64,000 nt of DNA, from NCBI RefSeq assembly GCF_988242995.1, contig NZ_OZ547043.1; one strand, given 5' to 3'. Under the pieces are notes generated by a model that was not told the DNA's origin, ran no database searches, and saw nothing but the letters and a program-made list of their open reading frames with translations. A program made the translations under genes and the position numbers. This document shows positions 6,112 through 38,259 of the stretch, in pieces; the stretch's first letter is position 1, and the number at the start of each line of letters is the position of its first letter.

Positions 6112-6735
6112 ATGTCAACGATTATTATGGATTTATGTAGTTACACCCGACTAGGTTTAACCGGGTATCTGTTGAGTAGAGGGGTTAAAAAAAGAGAAAT
6201 CAACGACATTGAAACCGTTGATGACCTTGCCATAGCTTGTGATTCACAGCGCCCTTCAGTGGTGTTTATTAATGAGGACTGTTTCATCCATGATGCTTCT
6301 AACAGTCAGCGCATCAAGCACATCATTAATCAACATCCCAATACGTTATTTATCGTTTTTATGGCAATTGCCAATGTTCATTTTGATGAATATCTATTGG
6401 TCAGAAAAAATTTATTGATCAGTTCTAAATCGATTAAACCGGAATCTCTCGACGATATCCTTGGCGATATTCTGAAAAAAGAGACAACGATAACCTCTTT
6501 TTTAAATATGCCGACGTTATCATTGAGCCGAACCGAATCGAGTATGTTGCGAATGTGGATGGCAGGTCAGGGAACCATTCAAATCTCTGACCAAATGAAT
6601 ATCAAAGCCAAGACCGTTTCATCGCATAAAGGTAATATTAAACGTAAGATCAAAACGCATAATAAACAGGTTATCTACCATGTCGTCCGACTGACGGATA
6701 ATGTGACTAATGGTATTTTTGTCAACATGCGCTAA
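6112..6735 (+). CDS. rcsA: Colanic acid capsule regulator RcsA (LuxR-type HTH)
   Basis: 207-aa ORF with C-terminal LuxR-type HTH; AT-rich gene with long AT-rich leader, as expected for rcsA. Confidence 0.9.
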
Positions 6736-10176: not shown

Positions 10177-10398
10177 CCTGCTTTTTTATGATTCTGGCAT
10201 AACCTGGCGATAGCGTACCGCAAAACAGCGATAATTTTATAATGGTGGCATGATAAGACGCGACAGACATCGATAGTTTTATAACGTAGGCATGATAAGA
10301 CGCGATAGCGTCGCATCAGGCAATTCAGTGCAGACACTGGCACACCCGACCGGATGCGACGTGAGCGCCACATCCGGTCGGGTGTTAATGATACCCTT

Positions 10399-16260: not shown

Positions 16261-17319
16261 ATGAAAAGAAAAGTTCTGGCAATGCTGGTCCCGGCGTTAT
16301 TAGTTGCTGGCGCAGCAAATGCGGCTGAAATTTATAATAAAAATGGCAATAAACTGGATTTGTACGGCAAGATGGTTGGTGAGCGCATTCTGACCGACCG
16401 TGAAAATGGTGAAAAAGGCGATAATTCTCAAGATACCTCTTATGCCCGTGTAGGCGTGAAAGGTGAAACTCAGATCAACCCTGAATTGACTGGTTACGGT
16501 CAGTTTGAACTAGACCTGGAAGCATCAAACAGACACAACCCTGACCAAACTCGTTTGGCTTATGCTGGTTTGAGTTACAAAGATTTTGGTTCATTCGACT
16601 ATGGTCGTAATGTCGGTGTCGCGTATGATGCAGAAGCATTTACTGATATGTTTGTTGAGTGGGGCGGTGATTCATGGGCTGGTACTGACCTGTTCATGAC
16701 CAACCGTACCAACGGTGTTGCAACCTATCGTAACACAGATTTCTTTGGCATGGTTGAAGGTCTAAATTTTGCTCTGCAATATCAGGGTAAAAATGAAGGT
16801 ACAGGCAACTACAAAGCAAATGGCGATGGCCATGGTTTATCTGTAACTTACACTATTGACGGTTTCTCATTTGCTGGTGCTTACGCAAACTCTGATCGTA
16901 CTGATTTCCAGTCTAGTGATAGTAAAGGTGAAAAAGCAGAAGTTTGGGCACTGTCAACAAAATATGATGCCAACAACGTCTATGCTGCTGTGATGTACGG
17001 TGAATCTCACAACATGAATTCCGACGACGGTGATGTTGTGAACAAAACACAAAACTTCGAAGCTGTTCTGCAATATCAGTTCGACTTCGGTCTGCGTCCA
17101 TCCATCGGTTACTCCTATTCTAAAGCACTGGACGTAGCAGGTTACAAAGATTCTGATCGTCTGAACTACATTGAAATCGGTACCTGGTATTACTTCAATA
17201 AGAACATGAACGTATATACCGCTTATCAGATCAACCTGCTTGATAAGAGTGATTATGTTCTCGCTCATGGACTGAACACCGACGACCAACTCGCATTTGG
17301 TATCGTCTACCAGTTCTAA
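16261..17319 (+). CDS. yedS: OmpC/OmpF-family general porin (YedS type), intact
   Basis: Signal peptide MKRKVLAMLVPALLVAGAANA, porin beta-barrel with C-terminal ...FGIVYQF; start trimmed to ATG 16261. Confidence 0.85.
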   Translation: MKRKVLAMLVPALLVAGAANAAEIYNKNGNKLDLYGKMVGERILTDRENGEKGDNSQDTSYARVGVKGETQINPELTGYGQFELDLEASNRHNPDQTRLAYAGLSYKDFGSFDYGRNVGVAYDAEAFTDMFVEWGGDSWAGTDLFMTNRTNGVATYRNTDFFGMVEGLNFALQYQGKNEGTGNYKANGDGHGLSVTYTIDGFSFAGAYANSDRTDFQSSDSKGEKAEVWALSTKYDANNVYAAVMYGESHNMNSDDGDVVNKTQNFEAVLQYQFDFGLRPSIGYSYSKALDVAGYKDSDRLNYIEIGTWYYFNKNMNVYTAYQINLLDKSDYVLAHGLNTDDQLAFGIVYQF

Positions 17320-26525: not shown

Positions 26526-26625
26526 TTAACAACTTTGCAGATTAATTAACCAATTGAAATGACTTATGAAATTTAGTGTTGACAGACAAGGTACCGCTAA
26601 GTAATATGCGCCCCGTTCACACGAT

Positions 26626-26701
26626 TCCTCTGTAGTTCAGTCGGTAGAACGGCGGACTGTTAATCCGTATGTCACTGGTTCGAGTCCAGTCAGAGGAGCC
26701 A
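26626..26701 (+). tRNA. asnT: tRNA-Asn (GTT)
   Basis: TCCTCTGTAGTTCAGTCGGTAGAACGGCGGACTGTTAATCCGTATGTCACTGGTTCGAGTCCAGTCAGAGGAGCCA. Confidence 0.95.
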
Positions 26702-26863
26702 GATTCAAGTTTTCATGCTTATCTGTACGTTTATATTTGTTTACGATTCAGTAAGTTAGCGTGAAAATCCTTGCCGGTGCGTATCTGGTTTTATCTCCGC
26801 ATCGGGATAATTTGGTGGTCAGATCTGGGGTCAGTTTGGTTCGATTCTGGAGTGACCCCCAAA

Positions 26864-27743
26864 ATGTCTTTAAACGATTCTAAAATCCGCAAGTTAAAAT
26901 CTTCTTCCCGTCCGGTAAAACTCTCCGACTCTCACGGTCTGTATCTGCTCGTCAATCCGGGCGGTTCGCGCATCTGGTATCTCAAATATCGTTTCAACGG
27001 AAAAGAATCCAGAGTCAGTCTTGGCGCATACCCGCTGGTCTCACTGGCAGAAGCCAGGCAACAGCGCGACGGTATCCGCAAGTTACTGGCGCAGAATATC
27101 AACCCGGCGCAGCAGCGCATGGCAGAGAAAGCCGCCTGCTCCCCTGAAAAGTGCTTTAAAGCGGTGGCGCTGGCCTGGCACAAAACCAACAAAAAATGGT
27201 CGGCTGATTATGCCGCCCGTATTCTCGCCAGTATGGAAAACCATATCTTCCCGGCGGTTGGTCATTTGCCCGTTGCCAAACTTAAAACGCAGGATTTCAC
27301 TGCCCTGCTGAGGGTTATTGAGGATAAGGGCTTTCTGGAAGTCGCGTCCCGCACGCGGCAGCAACTCAGCAACATCATGCGCTATGCCGTATAGCAGGGG
27401 CTTACCGAAAGCAATCCGGCGCAGCATCTGGATGGCGTTGTCTCCTCCCCCGTAAAGAATCACTACCCCGCGTTACCGCTGGAGCGGTTGTCCGAACTGC
27501 TTGGCCGCATCGGTGACTATCAGCAGGGCCGGGAGTTAACCCGGCTGGCGGAGGTGCTGACACTGCACCTGTTCATCCGTTCCAGCGAACTGCGTTTCGC
27601 CCGCTGGAGCGAGATCGATTTCAGGCACAAAATCTGGACCATCCCCGCCACCCGCGAGGCCATCGACAAAGTTCGGTTTTCGGGGCGTGGCGCAAAAATG
27701 CGTACTCCGCATATCGTACCGCTCTCCCGCCAGGCGATTGCCC
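26864..27743 (+). pseudogene. P4-type tyrosine integrase remnant: in-frame TAG at 27395-27397 and 3' truncation by IS1
   Basis: N-terminal MSLNDSKIRKLK...GLYLLVNPGGSRIWYLKYRFNGKE... typical of tRNA-associated P4-like integrases; the same frame continues after the TAG (QGLTESNPAQHLDG...) and stops at the IS1 end. Confidence 0.8.
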
Positions 27744-27758
27744 GGTAATGACTCCAAC

Positions 27759-28262
27759 TTATTGATAGTGTTTTATGTTCAGATAATGCCCGATGACTTT
27801 GTCATGCAGCTCCACCGATTTTGAGAACGACAGCGACTTCCGTCCCAGCCGTGCCAGGTGCTGCCTCAGATTCAGGTTATGCCGCTCAATTCGCTGCGTA
27901 TATCGCTTGCTGATTACGTGCAGCTTTCCCTTCAGGCGGGATTCATACAGCGGCCAGCCATCCGTCATCCATATCACCACGTCAAAGGGTGACAGCAGGC
28001 TCATAAGACGCCCCAGCGTCGCCATAGTACGTTCACCGAATACGTGCGCAACAACCGTCTTCCGGAGACTGTCATACGCGTAAAACAGCCAGCGCTGGCG
28101 CGATTTAGCCCCGACATAGCCCCACTGTTCGTCCATTTCCGCGCAGACGATGACGTCACTGCCCGGCTGTATGCGCGAGGTTACCGACTGCGGCCTGAGT
28201 TTTTTAAGTGACGTAAAATCGTGTTGAGGCCAACGCCCATAATGCGGGCTGTTGCCCGGCAT
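27759..28262 (-). CDS. insB: IS1 InsB (expressed as InsAB' by -1 frameshift)
   Basis: 167-aa ORF overlapping insA in the -1 frame. Confidence 0.93.
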
Positions 28263-28456
28263 CCAACGCCATTCATGGCCATATCAATGATTTTCTGGTG
28301 CGTACCGGGTTGAGAAGCGGTGTAAGTGAACTGCAGTTGCCATGTTTTACGGCAGTGAGAGCAGAGATAGCGCTGATGTCCGGCGGTGCTTTTGCCGTTA
28401 CGCACCACCCCGTCAGTAGCTGAACAGGAGGGACAGCTGATAGAAACAGAAGCCAC
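28181..28456 (-). CDS. insA: IS1 InsA
   Basis: 91-aa [94 protein letters not shown]. Confidence 0.93.
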
Positions 28457-28512
28457 TGGAGCACCTCAAAAACACCATCATACACTAAATCAGTAAGTTG
28501 GCAGCATCACCG

Positions 28513-29268
28513 AAAATTAGCGCAATTGATTACAGTCAAAATATCAACGGTGATTACAAAGCCACCATTACAGGCGGCGGAGAGGGTATCGCAACGCTGA
28601 TCCCTGTATTGAATGGTGTTCATCAAGCTGGTCTGAGTACCACAATACAATTCACTCGCGCAGAAGACAAAATAATGAGCGGTACAGTATCAGTCAATGG
28701 TACTGACCTACCGACAACTACATTCCCTTCGCAGGGGTTCACCGGGGCGTATTATCAGTTGAATAATGACAACTTTGCCCCAGGAAAAACGGCGGCTGAT
28801 TATGAGTTTTCAAGCTCTGCCTCCTGGGTCGATGTTGATGCTACCGGTAAAGTGACATTTAAAAATGTCGGCAGCAATTGGGAAAGGATTACGGCGACGC
28901 CAAAATCAGGAGGCCCTAGCTATGTATACGAAATCCGTGTGAAGAGTTGGTGGGTGAACTCCGGCGATGCTTTCATGATATACAGCCTTGCTGAAAATTT
29001 TTGCAGTAGCAATGGCTACACACTTCCCCGTGCAGACCATTTAAACCATAGTCGTTCCCGAGGCATCGGGTCACTGTACAGTGAATGGGGAGATATGGGG
29101 CATTACACGACTGAAGCTGGTTTTCAATCAAATATGTATTGGTCATCTAGTCCCGCAAACTCAAGCGAACAATACGTAGTTTCCCTGGCAACAGGTGATC
29201 AAAGCGTATTTGAAAAGCTTGGGTTTGCTTATGCGACATGTTATAAAACCTGTGATTTTCCGTTATAA
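28513..29268 (+). pseudogene. yeeJ: C-terminal fragment of a large adhesin (YeeJ-like), 5' part removed at the IS1 junction
   Basis: Coding sequence starts abruptly at the IS1 end with no start codon; YeeJ assignment is by position next to asnT and yeeL. Confidence 0.6.
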
Positions 29269-29274
29269 TTTCTT

Positions 29275-29306
29275 AAAGAGTGCTCCATTCGGAGCACTCT
29301 TTTTTA
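29275..29306 (+). terminator. Rho-independent terminator after the adhesin fragment
   Basis: AAGAGTGCTCC-ATTC-GGAGCACTCTT followed by TTTTTAC. Confidence 0.75.
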
Positions 29307-29516
29307 CATTCCCTCTATAGAGCTTGCCCTTCTCTCACAGAAAATGAATAAATAAAACTGCTGCACCGCAAGAATCGCGTTCGATGTGACTATGATCGTA
29401 TCCGGTGAGTACAGCTTTGATCCAAAGGCTGGTTTTCTGTGATGATTGACCAGCCTCAGAGTATTGATGACACCACCGTTCATAACAGATCGGCATTACT
29501 ATGCATAAGTACTGTC

Positions 29517-30632
29517 TCATATTCTCGCCAAAACACTTTTTAATGCCTTTGCGAATTCATCCAGACTTATATTGTCAATTTTTTGCCCAACGACGACTGA
29601 CTCCGAAACATCGGCCATTGCGGGCCATCGCGTTTTGTAATCAGCATAAATTGCAACAACGGGAGTATTATAGGCACTTGCCATATGTAATATTGAGGTG
29701 TCAGGAGTTATTGCGATATAAGCATCTTTTATGATTGCTGCTGAACGTTTAATCGAGGGTGATAAGGATAAACGGTAGACATTATTATAACAATCCACTA
29801 ATACCCTGGCTTTATCTTCCCCTTTTGGTCCATGAACGATCACTATTGGTATATCTGTTTCACTTTGAATTTTTGCTATTAGATTTTCTGCAATCGATAA
29901 TGAAAATGTACGTTCCTGCGAGCTACCTTCTAAATTGAACGCAATGTAAGATCCTAACGATCGCATTTCCTCGCGCACCTCATCGAGTACATCCTCACTT
30001 AGTGGCAATTCATATATTGGCCTGACTGCTGGAAAACCCGCCTCACGCATCATAAATGCCCATGTCATAGGTACGGGAGCCCGGAGTTTCTGATCCATAC
30101 GGGACGCGTTCTTGCACAAAGGGGAGTAGCAATTCATGGTTATACCAACAACCTGAAAATTCGTTTTTGCTTTCAACTGACTGATAAATAACATCGTTTT
30201 CAGGTTCTTTTTACGCATCGCCTCTATACAAAGATCCGGCGTACCGTATTGCTGTGTTATGTTCTTCGCTAAATCTTTTATTTCTTTTAATGTTGCGTGA
30301 TCCTGCATAGTCATTGTGACTAATGTTAATTTAGTCTTTTCAAGTTTAAGTGCATTAAACACTTCTAAATTAATTGTCGACGTAACAATTAAAAGATGCT
30401 TAATTTTATGCAATTCAAGCGCCCGAATAACAGGAAAGATGGCCATAGCATCGCCAATCTGGTCGGGAATATGGATAACAACAAACTCTGTTTTTTCAAT
30501 ATTAAAATTATAAGCTTTATAATCGTAGTAACTAAATGCAATACGTCTCAACAATGATGCTAAAAACATACCTAACCTCGCCTCCCTACTGGTTATAATG
30601 CATTGCAGTCTATCAGACTCATCATGGCGCAA
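29517..30632 (-). CDS. yeeL: Glycosyltransferase family 9 (heptosyltransferase-like) protein
   Basis: 371-aa ORF with GT-B/heptosyltransferase features; gene symbol assigned by synteny (asnT-yeeJ-yeeL-shiA). Confidence 0.7.
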   Translation of the reverse strand: MRHDESDRLQCIITSREARLGMFLASLLRRIAFSYYDYKAYNFNIEKTEFVVIHIPDQIGDAMAIFPVIRALELHKIKHLLIVTSTINLEVFNALKLEKTKLTLVTMTMQDHATLKEIKDLAKNITQQYGTPDLCIEAMRKKNLKTMLFISQLKAKTNFQVVGITMNCYSPLCKNASRMDQKLRAPVPMTWAFMMREAGFPAVRPIYELPLSEDVLDEVREEMRSLGSYIAFNLEGSSQERTFSLSIAENLIAKIQSETDIPIVIVHGPKGEDKARVLVDCYNNVYRLSLSPSIKRSAAIIKDAYIAITPDTSILHMASAYNTPVVAIYADYKTRWPAMADVSESVVVGQKIDNISLDEFAKALKSVLARI

Positions 30633-30883
30633 TTTTGTGCATATGCGGACTTTTATGTTTCATATCTCGAACCTGTGGGTCCTCTGCTTAATCCTTAAAC
30701 AACACCAGCAACTCCTGCGCTTTCATCTTCCAGCGAATTTTTCATGTTGCCGTTAATCGGCCATAAAATCATTTGCAGATGCGCTCTGTCGAGGTAGTCT
30801 CATAAGGTTCGTTTATAGATCGACGGCAATGTGAGTTACCTTTTCCATACTAATTATAAAAAGACAGTACAAACAGGATCATT

Positions 30884-32200
30884 ATGGACTCCACGCTCAT
30901 CTCCACTCGTCCCGATGAAGGGACGCTTTCGTTAAGTCGCGCCCGACGAGCTGCGTTAGGCAGTTTCGCTGGTGCCGTCGTCGACTGGTATGATTTTTTA
31001 CTCTATGGCATTACCGCCGCACTGGTGTTTAATCGCGAGTTTTTTCCGCAAGTAAGCCCGGCGATGGGAACGCTCGCCGCATTTGCCACCTTTGGCGTCG
31101 GATTCCTTTTCCGTCCGCTCGGCGGTGTCATTTTCGGTCACTTTGGCGACCGACTGGGACGTAAGCGCATGTTAATGCTGACCGTCTGGATGATGGGCAT
31201 CGCGACAGCCTTGATTGGTATTCTTCCTTCCTTCTCGACCATTGGGTGGTGGGCACCTATTTTACTGGTGACGCTGCGTGCCATTCAGGGATTTGCCGTC
31301 GGCGGCGAATGGGGAGGCGCGGCGTTGCTTTCCGTTGAAAGTGCACCGAAAAATAAAAAAGCCTTTTACAGTAGCGGTGTACAAGTTGGCTACGGTGTAG
31401 GTTTACTGCTTTCAACCGGACTGGTTTCATTGATCAGTATGATGACGACTGACGAACAGTTTTTAAGCTGGGGCTGGCGCATTCCTTTCCTGTTTAGCAT
31501 CGTACTGGTACTGGGAGCATTGTGGGTGCGCAATGGCATGGAGGAGTCCGCGGAATTTGAACAACAGCAACATTATCAAGCTGCCGCGAAAAAACGCATC
31601 CCGGTTATCGAAGCGCTGTTACGACATCCCGGTGCTTTCCTGAAGATTATTGCGCTACGACTGTGCGAATTGCTGACGATGTACATCGTTACTGCCTTCG
31701 CACTTAATTATTCAACCCAGAATATGGGGTTACCGCGCGAACTTTTCCTCAATATTGGTTTGCTGGTAGGTGGATTAAGCTGCCTGACAATTCCCTGTTT
31801 TGCCTGGCTTGCCGATCGTTTTGGTCGCCGCAGGGTTTATATCACAGGCGCGTTAATCGGAACGTTGAGCGCATTTCCTTTCTTTATGGCGCTTGAAGCA
31901 CAATCTATTTTCTGGATAGTTTTCTTCTCCATAATGCTGGCAAACATTGCGCATGACATGGTGGTGTGTGTGCAACAACCGATGTTTACCGAAATGTTTG
32001 GTGCCAGTTATCGCTATAGTGGCGCTGGAGTCGGTTATCAGGTTGCCAGTGTGGTTGGCGGTGGATTTACACCTTTTATTGCCGCTGCACTCATCACTTA
32101 CTTTGCCGGGAACTGGCATAGCGTCGCCATTTATTTGCTGGCTGGATGCCTGATTTCCGCAATGACCGCTTTGTTGATGAAAGACAGTCAACGCGCTTGA
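30884..32200 (+). CDS. shiA: Shikimate:H+ symporter ShiA (MFS)
   Basis: 438-aa 12-TM MFS protein. Confidence 0.88.
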   Translation: MDSTLISTRPDEGTLSLSRARRAALGSFAGAVVDWYDFLLYGITAALVFNREFFPQVSPAMGTLAAFATFGVGFLFRPLGGVIFGHFGDRLGRKRMLMLTVWMMGIATALIGILPSFSTIGWWAPILLVTLRAIQGFAVGGEWGGAALLSVESAPKNKKAFYSSGVQVGYGVGLLLSTGLVSLISMMTTDEQFLSWGWRIPFLFSIVLVLGALWVRNGMEESAEFEQQQHYQAAAKKRIPVIEALLRHPGAFLKIIALRLCELLTMYIVTAFALNYSTQNMGLPRELFLNIGLLVGGLSCLTIPCFAWLADRFGRRRVYITGALIGTLSAFPFFMALEAQSIFWIVFFSIMLANIAHDMVVCVQQPMFTEMFGASYRYSGAGVGYQVASVVGGGFTPFIAAALITYFAGNWHSVAIYLLAGCLISAMTALLMKDSQRA

Positions 32201-32301
32201 TAGCCTGGCGAAGATCATCCGATCTTCGCCTTACACTTTTGTTTCACATTTCTGTGACATACTATCGGATGTGCGGTAATTGTATGGAACAGGAGACACA
32301 C

Positions 32302-33756
32302 ATGAATAATAAGGGCTCCGGTCTGACCCCAGCTCAGGCACTGGATAAACTCGACGCGCTGTATGAGCAATCTGTAGTCGCATTACGCAACGCCATTGGC
32401 AACTATATTACAAGTGGCGAATTACCTGATGAAAACGCCCGCAAACAAGGTCTTTTTGTCTATCCATCACTGACCGTAACCTGGGACGGTAGCACAACCA
32501 ATCCCCCCAAAACGCGCGCATTTGGTCGCTTTACCCACGCAGGCAGCTACACCACCACGATTACTCGCCCTACTCTCTTTCGTTCGTATCTTAATGAACA
32601 ACTTACGTTGCTGTATCAGGATTATGGTGCGCATATCTCTGTGCAACCCTCGCAGCATGAAATCCCCTATCCTTATGTCATCGATGGCTCTGAATTGACA
32701 CTTGATCGCTCAATGAGCGCTGGGTTAACTCGCTACTTCCCGACAACAGAACTGGCGCAAATTGGCGATGAAACTGCAGACGGCATTTATCATCCAACTG
32801 AATTCTCCCCGCTATCGCATTTTGATGCGCGCCGCGTCGATTTTTCCCTCGCACGGTTGCGCCATTATACCGGTACGCCAGTTGAACATTTTCAGCCGTT
32901 CGTCTTGTTTACCAACTACACACGTTATGTGGATGAATTCGTTCGTTGGGGATGCAGCCAGATCCTCGATCCTGATAGTCCCTACATTGCCCTTTCTTGT
33001 GCTGGCGGGAACTGGATCACCGCCGAAACCGAAGCGCCAGAAGAAGCCATTTCCGACCTTGCATGGAAAAAACACCAGATGCCAGCATGGCATTTAATTA
33101 CCGCCGATGGTCAGGGTATTACTCTGGTGAATATTGGCGTGGGACCGTCCAATGCTAAAACCATCTGCGATCATCTGGCAGTGCTACGCCCGGATGTCTG
33201 GTTGATGATTGGTCACTGTGGCGGATTACGTGAAAGTCAGGCCATTGGCGATTATGTACTTGCACACGCTTATTTACGCGATGACCACGTTCTTGATGCG
33301 GTTCTGCCGCCCGATATTCCTATTCCGAGCATTGCTGAAGTGCAACGTGCGCTTTATGACGCCACCAAGCTGGTGAGTGGCAGGCCCGGTGAGGAAGTCA
33401 AACAGCGGCTACGTACAGGTACTGTGGTAACCACAGATGACAGGAACTGGGAATTACGTTACTCAGCTTCTGCACTTCGTTTTAACTTAAGCCGGGCCGT
33501 AGCAATTGATATGGAAAGTGCAACCATTGCCGCGCAAGGATATCGTTTCCGCGTGCCATACGGGACACTACTGTGTGTTTCAGATAAACCATTACATGGT
33601 GAGATTAAACTTCCCGGTCAGGCTAACCGTTTTTATGAAGGTGCTATTTCCGAACACCTGCAAATTGGCATTCGGGCGATCGATTTGCTGCGCGCAGAAG
33701 GCGACCGACTACATTCACGTAAATTACGAACCTTTAATGAGCCGCCGTTCCGATAG
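32302..33756 (+). CDS. amn: AMP nucleosidase Amn
   Basis: Start trimmed to MNNKGSGLTPAQALDKLDALYEQ... (484 aa). Confidence 0.92.
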   Translation: MNNKGSGLTPAQALDKLDALYEQSVVALRNAIGNYITSGELPDENARKQGLFVYPSLTVTWDGSTTNPPKTRAFGRFTHAGSYTTTITRPTLFRSYLNEQLTLLYQDYGAHISVQPSQHEIPYPYVIDGSELTLDRSMSAGLTRYFPTTELAQIGDETADGIYHPTEFSPLSHFDARRVDFSLARLRHYTGTPVEHFQPFVLFTNYTRYVDEFVRWGCSQILDPDSPYIALSCAGGNWITAETEAPEEAISDLAWKKHQMPAWHLITADGQGITLVNIGVGPSNAKTICDHLAVLRPDVWLMIGHCGGLRESQAIGDYVLAHAYLRDDHVLDAVLPPDIPIPSIAEVQRALYDATKLVSGRPGEEVKQRLRTGTVVTTDDRNWELRYSASALRFNLSRAVAIDMESATIAAQGYRFRVPYGTLLCVSDKPLHGEIKLPGQANRFYEGAISEHLQIGIRAIDLLRAEGDRLHSRKLRTFNEPPFR

Positions 33757-34098
33757 TAAGTTCTGAACCTTCTTATCAAAAATAGATGTGAAGGATTAAG
33801 TAAGACATCTGGCAAATAACCCGCAATAAACGCGGGCTGTTTGCTTCCTTGGGCGGATACGAGTTTTATTATCGTCTTAATGATTTCCACATATTAAAAG
33901 CAAGTATGCTTTCAAAACACAATTATAAAAAATCCCGCCAACAATATATGTTTTTATAAAAATAAATATATGATTATGGCTTTAGAATATTTTTATTTCT
34001 AATAGACGAGATTTTTCCTGTTATGATATAATATGCCGAATTAACACATGTTAACGATTTACCAGTAATGTAAATAAATTTTCGAGGAGATCATTCCA

Positions 34099-34815
34099 GT
34101 GGGACGTAAATGGGCCAATATTGTTGCTAAAAAAACGGCTAAAGACGGTGCAACGTCTAAAATTTATGCAAAATTCGGTGTAGAAATCTATGCTGCTGCT
34201 AAACAAGGTGAACCCGATCCAGAATTAAACACATCTTTAAAATTCGTTATTGAACGTGCAAAGCAGGCACAAGTTCCAAAGCACGTTATTGATAAAGCAA
34301 TTGATAAAGCCAAAGGCGGCGGAGATGAAACGTTCGTGCAGGGACGTTATGAAGGCTTTGGTCCTAATGGCTCAATGATTATCGCCGAGACATTGACTTC
34401 AAATGTTAACCGTACGATTGCTAACGTTCGCACAATTTTCAATAAAAAAGGCGGCAATATCGGAGCGGCAGGTTCTGTCAGCTATATGTTTGACAATACG
34501 GGTGTGATTGTATTTAAAGGATCAGACCCTGACCATATTTTTGAAATTTTACTTGAAGCTGAAGTTGATGTTCGTGATGTGACTGAAGAAGAAGGTAACA
34601 TTGTTATTTATACTGAACCTACTGACCTTCATAAAGGAATCGCGGCTCTAAAAGCATCTGGAATCACTGAGTTCTCAACAACAGAATTAGAAATGATTGC
34701 TCAATCTGAAGTTGAGCTTTCCCCAGAAGATTTAGAAATCTTTGAAGGGCTTGTTGATGCCCTTGAAGATGACGACGATGTACAAAAAGTTTATCATAAC
34801 GTCGCAAATCTCTAA
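34099..34815 (+). CDS. yeeN: YebC/PmpR-family transcriptional regulator YeeN
   Basis: 238-aa ORF (GTG start) [26 protein letters not shown]... Confidence 0.9.
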
Positions 34816-34822
34816 TTATATT

Positions 34823-34856
34823 TTAAAGAAATCTGTCTTTATGGCAGATTTCTTTA
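34823..34856 (+). terminator. Putative terminator hairpin after yeeN
   Basis: AAAGAAATCTG...CAGATTTCTTT; weak U-tract. Confidence 0.4.
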
Positions 34857-35270
34857 ATCTCATAGAATCCTTATAAAAAATATAATGTTTAACTCATCAT
34901 ATTGCTTATAAAAAATCCCCGTCCCCAGAGAAATAATATTTATTAAAATGGCAGGTCTTCTTTTTCTGATTACCGAAGACAAAGTGGCAATTACGTATAG
35001 TTTCCCGATAAAGACGCGACAGCTACATCCCGCATAAGGCATTTTTCTCTTTATCTTTGTACGGTACTTCATGGAACAGAATTTTTGACCTTGTGAATCG
35101 TGATGTCTGTTGGGGAGGGGCAATTTGCTCACTGAAGCGTGAGACTCAATTAAGCGCACGAAACACAGAAATCAAAAAACCCGGTCACTTTTTTACAAGG
35201 TAACCGGGTAAAAATAATTTTTATTTTTTAACTGCTTTGAGACTCATAGAGATGTCTCAAAACTAAAATT

Positions 35271-35346
35271 TGGCTCCTCTGACTGGACTCGAACCAGTGA
35301 CATACGGATTAACAGTCCGCCGTTCTACCGACTGAACTACAGAGGA
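35271..35346 (-). tRNA. asnW: tRNA-Asn (GTT)
   Basis: Reverse complement is identical to asnT. Confidence 0.95.
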
Positions 35347-35446
35347 ATCGTGAGAACGAGGCGAATATTAGCGATGCCCACCCACAATGTCAAAGCCTGT
35401 TTTTTAAATTTGAAATCGTTTGCTGAAATAATCTGCATTTTGTCGT

Positions 35447-37087
35447 TTATTCCGACACAACTGGCTTTTTTTCACACTTTTGCGACTCGGATCGAGGGTA
35501 TTTCCATAGCCAACGTCCAGTAACCATTCGCCAGTAAAACAGCACGGCCCGCACAGCCCAGTCGGCAAACATTCCCATCCAGACACCAACCACACCCCAG
35601 CCAAGCATGATTCCCAGCACATAACCGACTACAACCCGACAACCCCACATGCTCAACATCGAAACCCACATGGCGTAACGGGCATCACGAGCACCTTTAA
35701 ATCCAGCGGGTAGCACCCATGAGGCGGACCAAATAGGCATAAATAAAGCATTTAGCCAAATCAGAATCACAACGACATGTTTAACCTGTGGATCCTGGGT
35801 GTAAAACGATGCCATAAGCCCGGCAAAGGGAGCCGTTAGCCAGGCGATGGCCGTTAATCCAAGAGTGGACAGCCAGAACACATGCCGCAACTGAATCTCT
35901 GCTTGCGCTATCTGCCCTACCCCCAACCTTCGGCCTGTAATGATCGTAGAAGCAGAGCCGAGCGCACTTCCGGGTAAGTTGATAAGAGCCGCAATTGAAA
36001 ACGCGATAAAATTTCCGGCAATAACACTGGTCCCCATTCCGGCAACGAACATTTGGGTTAATAACCGACCACTGGTAAATAACACTGATTCGACACTCGC
36101 TGGAATACCAATCCCCATGACTTCCCAGATAATGCTAAAATTCAGCGGTTTAAAATAGCTCTTTAACGAAATCCTTAGCGCAGGATTAAAACCTATCGCC
36201 AGCACCCACAAAATTGCAACTGCGCCAATATAACGAGAAATGGTTAAACCCAACCCAGCCCCGACAAATCCCAGTCCCGGCCAGGAGAAAAGGCCGTAAA
36301 TCAATATGCCGCTAATAATAATATTAAGAATATTCAGGCTACCGTTAATCAGTAGCGGTATTTTCGTATTCCCTGCACCACGAAGTGCCCCACTACCAAT
36401 CAAAGTGATGGCAGCTGCTGGATAACTGAGTACCGTCAGCTCCAGATAAGTCAACGCCAGTGCTTTAACTTCTGTCGTGGCATCACCCGCGACGAAATCA
36501 ATAATTTGTTCGCCAAAATGATGAATAAGCGTTGCCAACAGTACGGCAAACAACGTCATGATCACCAATGACTGCCGCGTCGCCACCCTCGCTCGTCGTC
36601 GATCCCGCTTACCGAGACTAAATGCCACAACGACAGTGGTACCAAGATCGATAGCAGCAAAAAAAGCCATAATGACCATATTGAAGCTGTCCGCCAATCC
36701 CACGCCGGCCATCGCATCTTTTCCCAGCCAGCTGACCAGAAAAGTGCTCAGGACACCCATCAACAGGACACAGGCATTCTCCATGAAGATAGGAACAGCA
36801 AGCGGGGTTATCTCGCGCCAGAACAACACTTTGTAGCTCTTGCGTTTAGCGTGCCAGCGAGTGCCGTGAACAACCTGGCGTAAAGCAGAGGAGATATTCA
36901 AAGCCGACCTTAATTGCAGAAAGTGAAACCACATTTCAAATAATGAGGGAGAATCAGCAAAGCTGCAAAGATTTTCGCCAACAAATTGTCTGCAAATGCA
37001 ACAAACTGTTGATAGAAACGGCAAACAGTTGGGGAATTTAAAAATCGGGTTTGACAAAAGATTTTTCGCCGTTAAGATGTGCCTCAA
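35447..37087 (-). CDS. yeeO: MATE-family efflux transporter YeeO
   Basis: 12-TM MATE protein; the ORF is probably over-extended at its N-terminus (true start likely an internal Met). Confidence 0.85.
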   Translation of the reverse strand: MRHILTAKNLLSNPIFKFPNCLPFLSTVCCICRQFVGENLCSFADSPSLFEMWFHFLQLRSALNISSALRQVVHGTRWHAKRKSYKVLFWREITPLAVPIFMENACVLLMGVLSTFLVSWLGKDAMAGVGLADSFNMVIMAFFAAIDLGTTVVVAFSLGKRDRRRARVATRQSLVIMTLFAVLLATLIHHFGEQIIDFVAGDATTEVKALALTYLELTVLSYPAAAITLIGSGALRGAGNTKIPLLINGSLNILNIIISGILIYGLFSWPGLGFVGAGLGLTISRYIGAVAILWVLAIGFNPALRISLKSYFKPLNFSIIWEVMGIGIPASVESVLFTSGRLLTQMFVAGMGTSVIAGNFIAFSIAALINLPGSALGSASTIITGRRLGVGQIAQAEIQLRHVFWLSTLGLTAIAWLTAPFAGLMASFYTQDPQVKHVVVILIWLNALFMPIWSASWVLPAGFKGARDARYAMWVSMLSMWGCRVVVGYVLGIMLGWGVVGVWMGMFADWAVRAVLFYWRMVTGRWLWKYPRSESQKCEKKPVVSE

Positions 37088-37094
37088 CAGCGAT

Positions 37095-37170
37095 TCCTCT
37101 GTAGTTCAGTCGGTAGAACGGCGGACTGTTAATCCGTATGTCACTGGTTCGAGTCCAGTCAGAGGAGCCA
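37095..37170 (+). tRNA. asnU: tRNA-Asn (GTT)
   Basis: Identical to asnT. Confidence 0.95.
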
Positions 37171-37179
37171 AATTTCTGA

Positions 37180-37207
37180 AAAGCCCGCTTTTATAGCGGG
37201 CTTTTTG
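37180..37207. terminator. Hairpin terminator between asnU and cbl
   Basis: AAAGCCCGCT-TTTAT-AGCGGGCTTT followed by TTG. Confidence 0.75.
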
Positions 37208-38158
37208 CTATATCTGATAATCAATTTCCTCTTCACTGTTTTCCATCACCTGCCGCTTGATATCCTCAACTGAAAGTCCTGCATTACAAAGTTCCAGAAA
37301 GCGCCAGACATAGTTACGCTGAAGTTGCCCTCGCTTGAGTCCCAACCAGACAGTATTAGCATCGAAAAGATGCCGCGTATCCAGGCGGATTAAATTCTTT
37401 TCCTCTTGTTCACCGCTGGATTGTTCGGCAACTAATCCGATCCCCAGCCCAAGAGCAACATAGGTTTTAATGACATCAGAATCCTGCGCACTTAATACAA
37501 TATCTGCCAGCAAACCTTTGCGGGCAAATGCGTCATCAATACGTGAGCGCCCCGTAATCCCCTGTCGGTAAGTGATTAACGGCCACTTCGCTATTGATTC
37601 CAGCGTCAATGGTGTAATTTGCGTCAAGGGATGATCGAGTGGAACAAGCAAACTATGGTGCCAACGAAACCACGGGAAGGCGACGAGCTGCGGGTCATTA
37701 CTCAAACGCTCGCTGGCGATACCAATATCAGCTTCGCCATTTTGCAACAACGTCGCAATTTCCTGTGGCGTCCCCTGGATTAGCTCGAGCCGAACCTCCG
37801 GGAAAAGTTCGCGAAAAGCTTTAATGACCCCTGGCAAGCTATAACGCGCCTGAGTATGCGTCGTTGCAATAGTGAGAACGCCAGACGTATCGTTGGTAAA
37901 CAGGTCTGCAAGCCGACGAACATTACTGGCTTCATTCAGAATACGTTCTGCAATGACCAGTAATGCTTTGCCCGGTTCAGTCATGCCCAGCAGTCGCTTA
38001 CCTCGTCGAACAAATATTTCGATGCCAAGTTCATCCTCCAGTTCCCGAATATGACGGCTGACGCCTGACTGTGAGGTAAAAAGCATATTCGCAACCTCTG
38101 TCAGGTTGTAATCCTGACGTGCAGCTTCGCGGATTATCTTTAGTTGTTGGAAATTCAC
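37208..38158 (-). CDS. cbl: LysR-family regulator Cbl (sulfonate utilisation)
   Basis: 316-aa LysR-type ORF MNFQQLKIIREAARQDYNLTEVANMLFTSQSGVSRHIRELE... Confidence 0.9.
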   Translation of the reverse strand: MNFQQLKIIREAARQDYNLTEVANMLFTSQSGVSRHIRELEDELGIEIFVRRGKRLLGMTEPGKALLVIAERILNEASNVRRLADLFTNDTSGVLTIATTHTQARYSLPGVIKAFRELFPEVRLELIQGTPQEIATLLQNGEADIGIASERLSNDPQLVAFPWFRWHHSLLVPLDHPLTQITPLTLESIAKWPLITYRQGITGRSRIDDAFARKGLLADIVLSAQDSDVIKTYVALGLGIGLVAEQSSGEQEEKNLIRLDTRHLFDANTVWLGLKRGQLQRNYVWRFLELCNAGLSVEDIKRQVMENSEEEIDYQI

Positions 38159-38259
38159 GGTAAACTCCGGGCAGTTCAGATATCCCGTTATTGTTAAAGT
38201 CTAACGCCCGGCATAACAAATAATAAAAACCCGCATCTTATTCCATCCCGATATAACGC

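Follow-up and report, generated by a model that had tools for sequence, protein, structure and literature searches.

The window, as we call the whole 64-kb stretch of DNA that was analysed, carries a compact series of elements running from the tRNA gene asnT to the tail of the adhesin gene yeeJ. We read these elements as follows:

26626–26701, plus strand: asnT, tRNA-Asn(GTT) (ARAGORN; Rfam tRNA, 72.6 bits)
26686–26706, plus strand: attL core, the last 16 nt of asnT and 5 nt more, reading CCAGTCAGAGGAGCCAGATTC
26864–27743, plus strand: P4-type tyrosine integrase pseudogene, codons 1–293 of 420 (reading frame, profile and alignment)
27744–28511, minus strand: IS1, 768 bp, intact (sequence comparison)
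28512–29268, plus strand: 3′-terminal remnant of yeeJ, an inverse autotransporter adhesin (alignment to ATCC 8739 and K-12 yeeJ; Pfam)
29275–29302, plus strand: terminator-like hairpin after yeeJ, retained (12-bp stem followed by a T run)

A promoter scan placed a promoter-like site near asnT (26579–26607), and an Rfam scan of the scar found no RNA genes other than the tRNA.

The frame beside asnT begins with an ATG at 26864, 162 nt past the tRNA gene, and is open to 27743 apart from a single TAG. It matches the NCBIfam profile PRK09692 ‘integrase’ (E = 3.7 × 10−40) and is identical at 286 of 293 residues to an intact 420-aa homologue from O145:H28. In that homologue Pfam identifies Arm-DNA-bind_3 (PF13356, 5.6 × 10−23), Phage_int_M (PF22022, 6.7 × 10−26) and Phage_integrase (PF00589, 2.3 × 10−15), and it is through the homologue that the Arm, central and C-terminal catalytic domains of a P4-type integrase are accounted for. 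The setting also fits this family, as the gene adjoins a tRNA gene and, in ATCC 8739, the 3′ end of that tRNA gene recurs at the other boundary of the island (attL/attR). The first-pass annotation had described a P4-type integrase frame directly after asnT, with an in-frame TAG and truncated by the IS1 end at 27744. This description holds, with the break falling after codon 293 of 420, except that the TAG lies at 27392–27394, 3 nt to the left of the position first given (27395–27397), where it replaces the CAG of Gln177. The frame ends about 70 residues inside the catalytic domain, and the HxxR and Tyr catalytic residues were lost with the 3′ end of the gene. Given the TAG at codon 177 and the loss of codons 294–420, the frame is a pseudogene of the P4-type family rather than a working member. 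The identical TAG is found in ATCC 8739 and at three other loci (L001, L002 and L006), while in O145:H28 the codon reads CAG and the gene is intact. Because relatives with an otherwise full-length integrase also carry the TAG, it is older than the truncation.

The IS1 copy that follows is the only one in the window and is intact. Its right inverted repeat (IRR, GGTAATGACTCC..., at 27744) abuts the integrase and its left inverted repeat (IRL, GGTGATGCTGCC..., at 28511) abuts yeeJ; the termini (GGTAATGACTCCAACTTATTGAT versus GGTGATGCTGCCAACTTACTGAT) form the imperfect repeats of about 23 bp that, with the length of 768 bp, characterize the element. NCBIfam transpos_IS1 matches both the insA (28181–28456) and insB′ (27759–28262) frames, the A6C frameshift site lies at about 28199–28207, and TTAAAAAAC is present, in keeping with a −1 frameshift fusion. 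InsA (91 aa) and the InsAB′ fusion (232 aa) are both intact; the fusion frame is open and identical to InsAB′ of an annotated IS1A, and the whole copy is 99.7% identical to an element annotated as IS1A. The sequences that border it, CGATTGCCC at the integrase end and GAAAATTAG at the yeeJ end, do not form an 8–9 bp target-site duplication, which leaves the assignment to the IS1 family unaffected. Intact termini with unlike flanks had been reported from the outset, along with the caveat that another alignment might expose a 9-bp duplication. We compared the flanks at every offset within 15 bp and found no duplication of 7–11 bp with up to two mismatches, and alternative IS1 boundaries that would yield one were likewise rejected. 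Two simple IS1 insertions in relatives (L020 and L024), their flanks treated in the same manner, served as positive controls and show duplications of 8–9 bp. The missing duplication implies either that a simple insertion did not bring this copy here or that it has since lost one of its flanks.

On the far side of IS1 lies the adhesin frame that had been noted to begin without a start codon. It proved to be the tail of yeeJ, collinear with the 3′ end of the gene in ATCC 8739 (7,076 bp) and K-12 (7,020 bp), and retains about the last 247 native codons (the last ~745 bp, about a tenth of the gene). The first 150 bp beyond the junction are 100% identical to ATCC 8739 yeeJ, and the right side as a whole, downstream genes included, is 98.8% identical across 7.1 kb. 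Pfam finds a partial Invasin_D3, Invasin_D4 (4.6 × 10−5) and Intimin_C (3.2 × 10−4), as expected in the intimin/invasin family of a C-terminal passenger region bearing invasin-type Ig domains and a C-type lectin domain of the intimin kind, and the encoded protein equals the ATCC 8739 YeeJ tail apart from its last residues. These are shifted by the loss of one A from a short run (A5 to A4, 29245–29248), which turns the native ...CYKNL* into ...CYKTCDFPL*, so that 29268 marks the end of the shifted frame and not the native end of yeeJ. The remnant lacks the N-terminal signal peptide, LysM domain and beta-barrel translocator, which export and anchoring require, as well as almost all of the Ig-like repeats; the window does not contain the initial 6,331 bp of yeeJ (89%). 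That the fragment might be a complete small gene in relatives had been raised as a possible objection; relatives carry a 7-kb gene at this position. Judged from sequence, 28512–29268 is a gene remnant, and YeeJ can be neither made nor exported in this strain.

Comparison with reference genomes reveals what the scar replaced. In ATCC 8739, asnT is followed by an 8.8-kb Rhs-type island and then by full-length yeeJ, whereas K-12 represents the empty site, with yeeJ directly after asnT; the limits of the island and its att repeat were defined by comparing these two genomes. The window follows ATCC 8739 up to nt 880 of the integrase and resumes at nt 6,332 of yeeJ, with IS1 standing in for 14,432 bp that comprise the integrase 3′ end, the rest of the island with attR, and 6,331 bp of yeeJ. 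Alignment to genomes with an intact asnT island and full-length yeeJ was a check suggested in the first-pass annotation, and its outcome bears out the proposed IS1-mediated deletion of the island together with the 5′ part of the adhesin gene. Within the 64-kb window, which is the only DNA of this genome covered, both flanks are collinear with and in the same orientation as K-12 and ATCC 8739, and the missing DNA was not found elsewhere. We thus read the event as a deletion and reject inversion or translocation within the window.

The att repeat is consistent with this account. A 21-bp direct repeat, CCAGTCAGAGGAGCCAAATTC, bounds the ATCC 8739 asnT island in two copies (attL/attR) and occurs once in K-12; the attL core of the window, CCAGTCAGAGGAGCCAGATTC, differs from the ATCC 8739 repeat by one SNP. 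A second, cognate copy of the asnT 3′ end had been suggested as something to look for downstream. No such attR is present in the 64-kb window, and its counterpart in ATCC 8739 falls inside the deleted stretch. With neither integrase nor attR, the island remnant is unable to excise.

The closest allele is that of strain 58-3, whose segment from attL through the integrase is 100% identical to the window and which still holds, besides the integrase pseudogene and yeeJ, another gene with an integrase domain, IS421, a 4.2-kb Rhs core gene and a 130-aa gene. To judge by such relatives, the lost island is best described as a small, already degenerate Rhs-type element and not the yersiniabactin high-pathogenicity island (HPI) with which asnT is commonly associated. 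These relatives are about 1% divergent, and the lineage’s own island may have differed in size and content; O145:H28 carries type VI secretion genes at this island position. We considered an HPI origin and rejected it, as the window integrase and the HPI integrase share only ~72% DNA identity, and relatives with the window's integrase allele carry Rhs genes in place of ybt/irp/fyuA. For comparison, the HPI strain CEA601S carries integrase-ybtS...fyuA downstream of asnT and has a different yeeJ truncation.

Taken together, these observations very probably describe the fossil of a small island that was once inserted into the 3′ end of asnT by a P4-type integrase and then decayed stepwise. The old CAG-to-TAG change at codon 177, visible in the relatives, inactivated the integrase first. 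An IS1-associated deletion then removed integrase codons 294–420, the remaining island with attR, a 308-bp spacer and ~6.3 kb of yeeJ (89%), leaving a single intact IS1 at the joint between unrelated sequences. Last, the 1-bp deletion in the A run altered the tail of the yeeJ remnant; it is present in all scar-bearing contigs and in no scar-less relative. The deletion and both its ends are read directly from the comparison, and the most likely molecular route is intramolecular transposition from an IS1 resident at one junction, the classical adjacent deletion. A precursor was sought in 5,426 complete E. coli genomes (IS1 at the left or right junction, the yeeJ side joined to IS1, or the opposite orientation) without an exact match, and no IS1 with a duplication at either window junction was found in complete E. 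coli genomes. As no precursor is available among these genomes, the route of the second step is inferred rather than demonstrated, and the term ‘IS1-mediated’ would fit at least three mechanisms that look alike in sequence: adjacent deletion, recombination between two IS1 copies, and one-step insertion with deletion.

Adjacent deletions by IS1 are well precedented. In the classical gal-region deletions of E. coli K-12 and the IS deletions of the long-term evolution experiment, as here, one intact IS remains at the joint with no duplication, several kilobases beside it are lost and the flanks stay collinear, a signature described by Ngan et al. 2024 (PMC11708052). The present case differs in offering only the end product, in a natural isolate.

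The second mechanism, which we hold to be possible though rather unlikely, invokes two IS1 copies in direct orientation, inserted separately into the integrase at CGATTGCCC and into yeeJ at GAAAATTAG, with RecA-dependent recombination deleting the interval and one IS1. The product would be the same, a single IS1 whose left flank comes from one insertion and whose right flank comes from the other. Relatives do carry IS1 insertions in or near yeeJ (L020; EC2641; PRO_A-1028; and L024, in yeeL), and Ngan et al. 2024 (PMC11708052) count recombination between IS copies among the common reasons why a duplication is absent. However, this mechanism needs two independent insertions plus a recombination event, neither insertion was found in the 5,426 genomes, and the same three steps would be required for each of 15 other IS1-bounded scars beside the integrase.

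Erosion here is thus recurrent: these 15 other IS1 copies, also lacking a duplication, lie against integrases of the same family beside asnT or asnV, with either IS1 orientation and at least three IS1 sequence variants represented. For the nine that lie at asnT (ten with the window) we mapped both deletion ends on ATCC 8739. The sister scars, found in complete E. coli genomes (among them HCP17S3_I4, 2022CK-00450, ET474, A23, the MB52/T28R, NT1F10 and E89 groups, and DAX4), share with the window asnT, the same TAG-bearing integrase pseudogene, an IS1 without duplication and then a truncated downstream gene, but in every one of them the junctions differ on both sides. In the nearest, HCP17S3_I4 (L001), the left side extends 477 bp further than in the window, while the right side is 11 bp shorter. 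Each of the two therefore retains DNA absent from the other, and neither derives from the other by a single deletion. A common origin of the two scars is possible: they share the integrase allele and the IS1 orientation, and their right junctions are close together. The outer flanks are ~1% divergent, and the yeeJ remnant offers few SNPs for comparison.

Such recurrence bears on the third mechanism, in which an IS1 copy became trapped at the joint while the 14 kb were being deleted, such as at a DNA break, with the usual target cleavage bypassed; we consider it highly improbable. In its favour, all 16 IS1 copies read beside the integrase family lack a duplication and have unique sequence on either side, and the same interval yielded no simple IS1 insertion. 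Yet IS1 is reportedly the classic adjacent-deletion element, a finding said to go back to Reif and Saedler in 1975. Moreover, intermediates missing from ~500 genomes are weak negative evidence, and selection for island loss would produce the same picture. Ngan et al. 2024 (PMC11708052) proposed one-step insertion with deletion for IS5 and IS481, but they assigned all 14 of the IS events that came with a deletion in the long-term evolution experiment to ordinary adjacent deletion.

We also asked whether the integrase 3′ end and the AT-rich stretch that follows it, at asnT and asnV, might be a specific hot spot for deletion-linked IS1 joints without duplication, and consider this doubtful. No duplication was seen in the 16 distinct joints read (window included). 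Two overlapping searches of 508 integrase carriers placed IS1 within ~580 bp of integrase nt 880 in 24 and 26 complete genomes, and a control anchor placed 2.1 kb further into the island had IS1 nearby in 0 of 400. A true hot spot, if neither an ascertainment effect nor selection, would be evidence on a population scale that IS1 can insert and delete in one step; alternatively, the pattern could reflect strong selection, acting repeatedly, for loss of the Rhs/YeeJ or sugar-transport (PTS) genes that asn-tRNA islands carry. The sister-scar series could be used as a natural data set to study where IS1 places the ends of its deletions.

That the joint is an assembly artefact, with two IS1 copies around an intact segment collapsed by the assembler, is scarcely credible: in the true genome IS1 would run into TTCTGAAACAG (the rest of the integrase) and the 5′ part of yeeJ would run into IS1, and although draft scaffold HG976952.1, whose flanks are 100% identical, has a 10-N gap across asnT, integrase and IS1, showing that the repeat is hard to assemble, two other assemblies span both junctions without gaps, short contigs begin within IS1 and enter the yeeJ remnant at the same junction, a frame runs from the integrase into IS1 on 18 contigs, and the yeeJ remnant has gained a lineage-private frameshift, as expected of a dead fragment.

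The exact scar occurs in ~43 public contigs and in none of the 5,426 complete E. coli genomes. The chimeric 256-aa ORF is present on 43 contigs, both junctions are identical in the independent assemblies L012 and L013, and the scaffold with matching flanks, HG976952.1, belongs to GCA_000731455.1; protein accessions CDU38186.1 and CDP70995.1 were found as well. A limited full-text literature search found no paper on this particular scar. Truncated yeeJ genes were reported in many E. coli strains by Martinez-Gil et al. 2017 (PMC5595812), who gave recombination at the adjoining asnT insertion site as the cause; that paper treats the yersiniabactin island and frameshifts, whereas IS1 has no occurrence in it and the Rhs-type island is not mentioned.

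The HPI at asnT offers a parallel in sharing the tRNA target and the P4-type integrase class, and in being lost or immobilized by insertion-sequence activity and integrase decay. In Yersinia pestis, the deletion of the pgm locus is flanked by IS100, and it resembles the present case in the same two processes. The likeness does not extend to content, as in relatives of the window allele the genes found are Rhs or type VI secretion genes and not ybt. The elements involved are already known and the process is textbook, leaving knowledge of IS1, P4-type integrases and YeeJ unchanged. What the locus provides is a clean, independently replicated case of how IS1 trims the tRNA-linked islands of E. 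coli and the core genes beside them. It also settles the annotation of this genome, in which the integrase, island remnant and yeeJ should be marked as pseudogenes or scar. The strain is unable to produce the YeeJ biofilm adhesin and carries an immobilized asnT island remnant, next to an IS1 that remains potentially active and could drive further deletions.

The asnT locus is best read as an ordinary IS1 deletion scar, an interpretation proposed by the first-pass annotation and supported by our analysis, which bears out that observation as a whole with a 3-nt correction to one stop codon. Every component of the scar belongs to a known family, and the scar is already known in kind.

Features of the asnT scar.
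26626–26701, plus strand: asnT, tRNA-Asn(GTT) (ARAGORN, Rfam)
26864–27743, plus strand: integrase frame from its ATG, with a single in-frame stop inside
27744–28511, transposase on minus strand: IS1, 768 bp, sole copy in the window
28512–29268: yeeJ C-terminal remnant, no native start (Pfam)
29275–29302: strong terminator-like hairpin after the yeeJ remnant

The integrase ATG lies 162 nt downstream of asnT, and its frame runs to 27743, where IS1 cuts it off as originally described. The in-frame TAG reported by the first-pass annotation is present, but at 27392–27394 (codon 177, CAG to TAG at Gln177) rather than at 27395–27397. Compared with an intact allele from an O145:H28 strain, whose Arm-DNA-bind_3, Phage_int_M and Phage_integrase domains form the P4-type architecture, the window frame is identical at 286/293 positions; membership tests agree that it is a P4-type integrase pseudogene. 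The family is present in 508 of 5,426 complete genomes, with at least 99% identity in 122 of those. Since the same TAG occurs in ATCC 8739, HCP17S3_I4 and 2022CK-00450, where the integrase is otherwise full-length, it is older than the IS1 event; the asnV-borne copy of EM18-18-42 shares it too.

IS1 lies with its right inverted repeat (IRR) toward the integrase and its left (IRL) toward the adhesin gene, placing its transposase on the minus strand. The element retains an intact InsA (91 aa), frameshift site (TTAAAAAAC) and 232-aa InsAB' fusion; both frames match NCBIfam transpos_IS1, and membership tests agree on an intact member of the known IS1 family. Its nine-base flanks differ, as first noted (CGATTGCCC on one side, GAAAATTAG on the other), and no alternative alignment yields a duplication: none of 7–11 bp with up to two mismatches was found at any offset within 15 bp. 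When the flanks of two simple IS1 insertions in relatives are compared in the same manner, their duplications do show: TAAAAACT for strain 58-3 and GGATAAACG for ET474.

To the right of IS1, the adhesin frame opens at 28512 lacking a native start, as the first reading had it, and encodes a partial Invasin_D3, an Invasin_D4 and an intimin C-type lectin domain (Pfam); membership tests agree that it is a C-terminal remnant of the known YeeJ family. The remnant has lost one A from an A5 run (29245–29248), turning the native tail ...CYKNL-stop into ...CYKTCDFPL-stop and moving the stop 12 nt further downstream, to 29266–29268. A5 is kept in all four relatives compared (ATCC 8739, HCP17S3_I4, 2022CK-00450 and K-12), and the 1-bp deletion is private to the scar-carrying lineage. 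Truncation of yeeJ beside asnT has been reported as frequent, with no mention of IS1 (PMC5595812).

From fliI to cobU, the window is collinear with K-12 except at asnT and two small variable spots. These other breaks, within fliI–cobU, fall at 16367–17305 and 10264–10372; they comprise the region of the yedS porin pseudogene and about 100 bp between dgcQ and yodC by K-12 coordinates. K-12, with an empty asnT site, carries a 7,020-bp yeeJ directly after asnT, and ATCC 8739 carries an island in between; the fragment is a complete small gene in neither.

Gene order after asnT in ATCC 8739.
1: 1,263-bp tyrosine-integrase pseudogene, annotated 'internal stop'
2: second integrase-domain gene
3: small ORF
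4: Rhs core gene, 5'-truncated
5: 130-aa gene
6: yeeJ, 7,076 bp

Aligning these two references reveals an 8.8-kb insertion in ATCC 8739 with the 21-bp direct repeat CCAGTCAGAGGAGCCAAATTC at both ends; because its first 16 nt are the asnT 3' end, the copies are attL and attR. Identity between the window and ATCC 8739 is 99.2% as far as integrase nt 880 and 98.8% from yeeJ nt 6,332 on, so that IS1 replaces 14,432 bp of the reference, no part of which was found elsewhere in the 64-kb window. The alignment to an island-bearing relative with full-length yeeJ, suggested as a check, supports the proposed loss of the island together with the adhesin 5' part; the cognate attR, expected downstream, instead belongs to the missing stretch.

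Segments of ATCC 8739 absent from the window.
7,793 bp: last 383 bp of the integrase and remaining island, including attR
308 bp: island–yeeJ spacer
6,331 bp: yeeJ 5' part

Judging from the genes annotated in relatives, the island probably carried Rhs-type or type VI effector cargo. Besides ATCC 8739, strain 58-3, whose attL–integrase segment is 100% identical to the window's, keeps yeeJ and the island (an intact 4.2-kb Rhs core gene, with an added IS421), and in the O145:H28 strain the intact integrase is followed by tssG, tssF and vgrG. The yersiniabactin high-pathogenicity island (HPI) was rejected as the lost island, as integrases of HPI strains share only ~72% DNA identity with the window's; HPI-bearing CEA601S has integrase-ybtS...fyuA at asnT and a different yeeJ truncation.

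IS-associated deletions are conventionally recognized by an intact element at the joint, collinear flanks and the lack of a duplication. Ngan et al. 2024 (PMC11708052) name two accepted causes, adjacent deletion and recombination of one IS copy with another, and propose one-step insertion with rearrangement as a further one. The most likely route here is adjacent deletion, which would proceed by intramolecular IS1 transposition from one prior insertion. We rank it first because that single insertion suffices and such deletions are classically associated with IS1; next comes recombination between a pair of IS1 copies, and the one-step route is third. No precursor with IS1 at either window junction was found among 5,426 complete E. 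coli genomes, and the data therefore do not tell the three apart. A collapsed assembly is unlikely given independent contigs with the same joints and the lineage-private frameshift, and collinear flanks exclude an inversion.

A 256-aa ORF running from a TTG start inside the IS1 IRL to the altered yeeJ tail is found on 43 public contigs (CDU38186.1, CDP70995.1), and joints identical to the window's recur in L012 and L013, independent assemblies that each read through both junctions; the scar is thus real and has become fixed in a lineage. In a third assembly, HG976952.1, the flanks match at 100% identity, but asnT, the integrase and IS1 fall in a 10-N gap. Neither junction occurs in the 5,426 complete RefSeq E. 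coli genomes. L012, a metagenome assembly, has 42 mismatches restricted to the IS1 interior (window 27851–28214), explained either by conversion from a divergent IS1 copy or by a chimerically assembled repeat. L012 and L013 also carry a phage-type integrase gene upstream of serU (window equivalent ~25529) that the window lacks, so that prophage content at this tRNA-Ser gene differs within the lineage.

In many other complete genomes, a duplication-free IS1 lies against the same TAG-bearing integrase pseudogene. We read 15 further joints of this kind, located at asnT or asnV and all differing in their junctions; in the interval concerned (equivalent to window 27700–28520), no simple insertion with duplication was seen. 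Both deletion ends were mapped for nine at asnT. The homologous asnV island carries sugar-transport (PTS) genes, and asnV joints have left ends only because their right flanks lack a match on ATCC 8739.

Ends of the missing stretch (left, right) in ATCC 8739 coordinates, read in the window's direction (the record reverse-complemented); integrase, 1418–2680.
Window: 2297, 16730
asnT, ET474: 2533, 17357
asnT, PCP06021: 2616, 19995
asnT, A23: 2759, 9653
asnT, HCP17S3_I4: 2774, 16741
asnT, E89 group: 2821, 18672
asnT, NT1F10 group: 2835, 18413
asnT, MB52/T28R group: 2853, 20082
asnT, 2022CK-00450: 2934, 16808
asnT, DAX4: 3501, 18684
asnV, EM18-18-42: 2277
asnV, STK78-E: 2302
asnV, T28R: 2569
asnV, A10: 2716
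asnV, D72: 2794

The joints include IS1 in either orientation and in at least three sequence variants, which marks them as independent events. Three (2277, 2297 and 2302) lie within 25 bp of each other inside the integrase. IS1 occurs within ~580 bp of an 80-bp integrase anchor in 24 genomes in the window's orientation and in 26 in the opposite one (the lists overlap), compared with 0/400 genomes for a control anchor placed 2.1 kb further into the island (one orientation tested). The DNA just past the integrase is AT-rich (62–72% AT), which fits the known IS1 target preference. We nevertheless give a true hot spot or special mechanism low probability, since the genomes are related, the control is single and selection to lose the island would look alike. 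T28R and the MB52 group (L009, L027) have two scars per chromosome (asnT–integrase pseudogene–IS1–truncated shiA, and asnV–truncated integrase–IS1–ldtA), so that islands at two asn-tRNA genes have been eroded by IS1 within one chromosome.

The window's four tRNA-Asn genes, asnT, asnW, asnU and asnV (starts 26626, 35271, 37095 and 39504), are identical over their last 25 nt, including the 16 nt that the tRNA contributes to the att core, and only asnT has an island remnant. Given these identical ends and the same integrase family at asnV in other strains, any of the four can act as an attachment site. Relative to CEA601S, the window is ~2% divergent between 29 and 41 kb and essentially identical from ~42 kb to its end (100.0% over 43000–64000), a pattern (29372–46355) suggestive of a recombination mosaic whose boundary lies near cobT/cobS. 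Beside cobU, 43200–64000 is an island rich in insertion sequences by the annotation of the identical CEA601S stretch: ISEc45 (IS110), two IS66-family elements including ISEc43, a decayed ISL3 and IS4/IS66 fragments, alongside PfkB kinase, amidotransferase, phosphotriesterase-related and inovirus Gp2-like genes.
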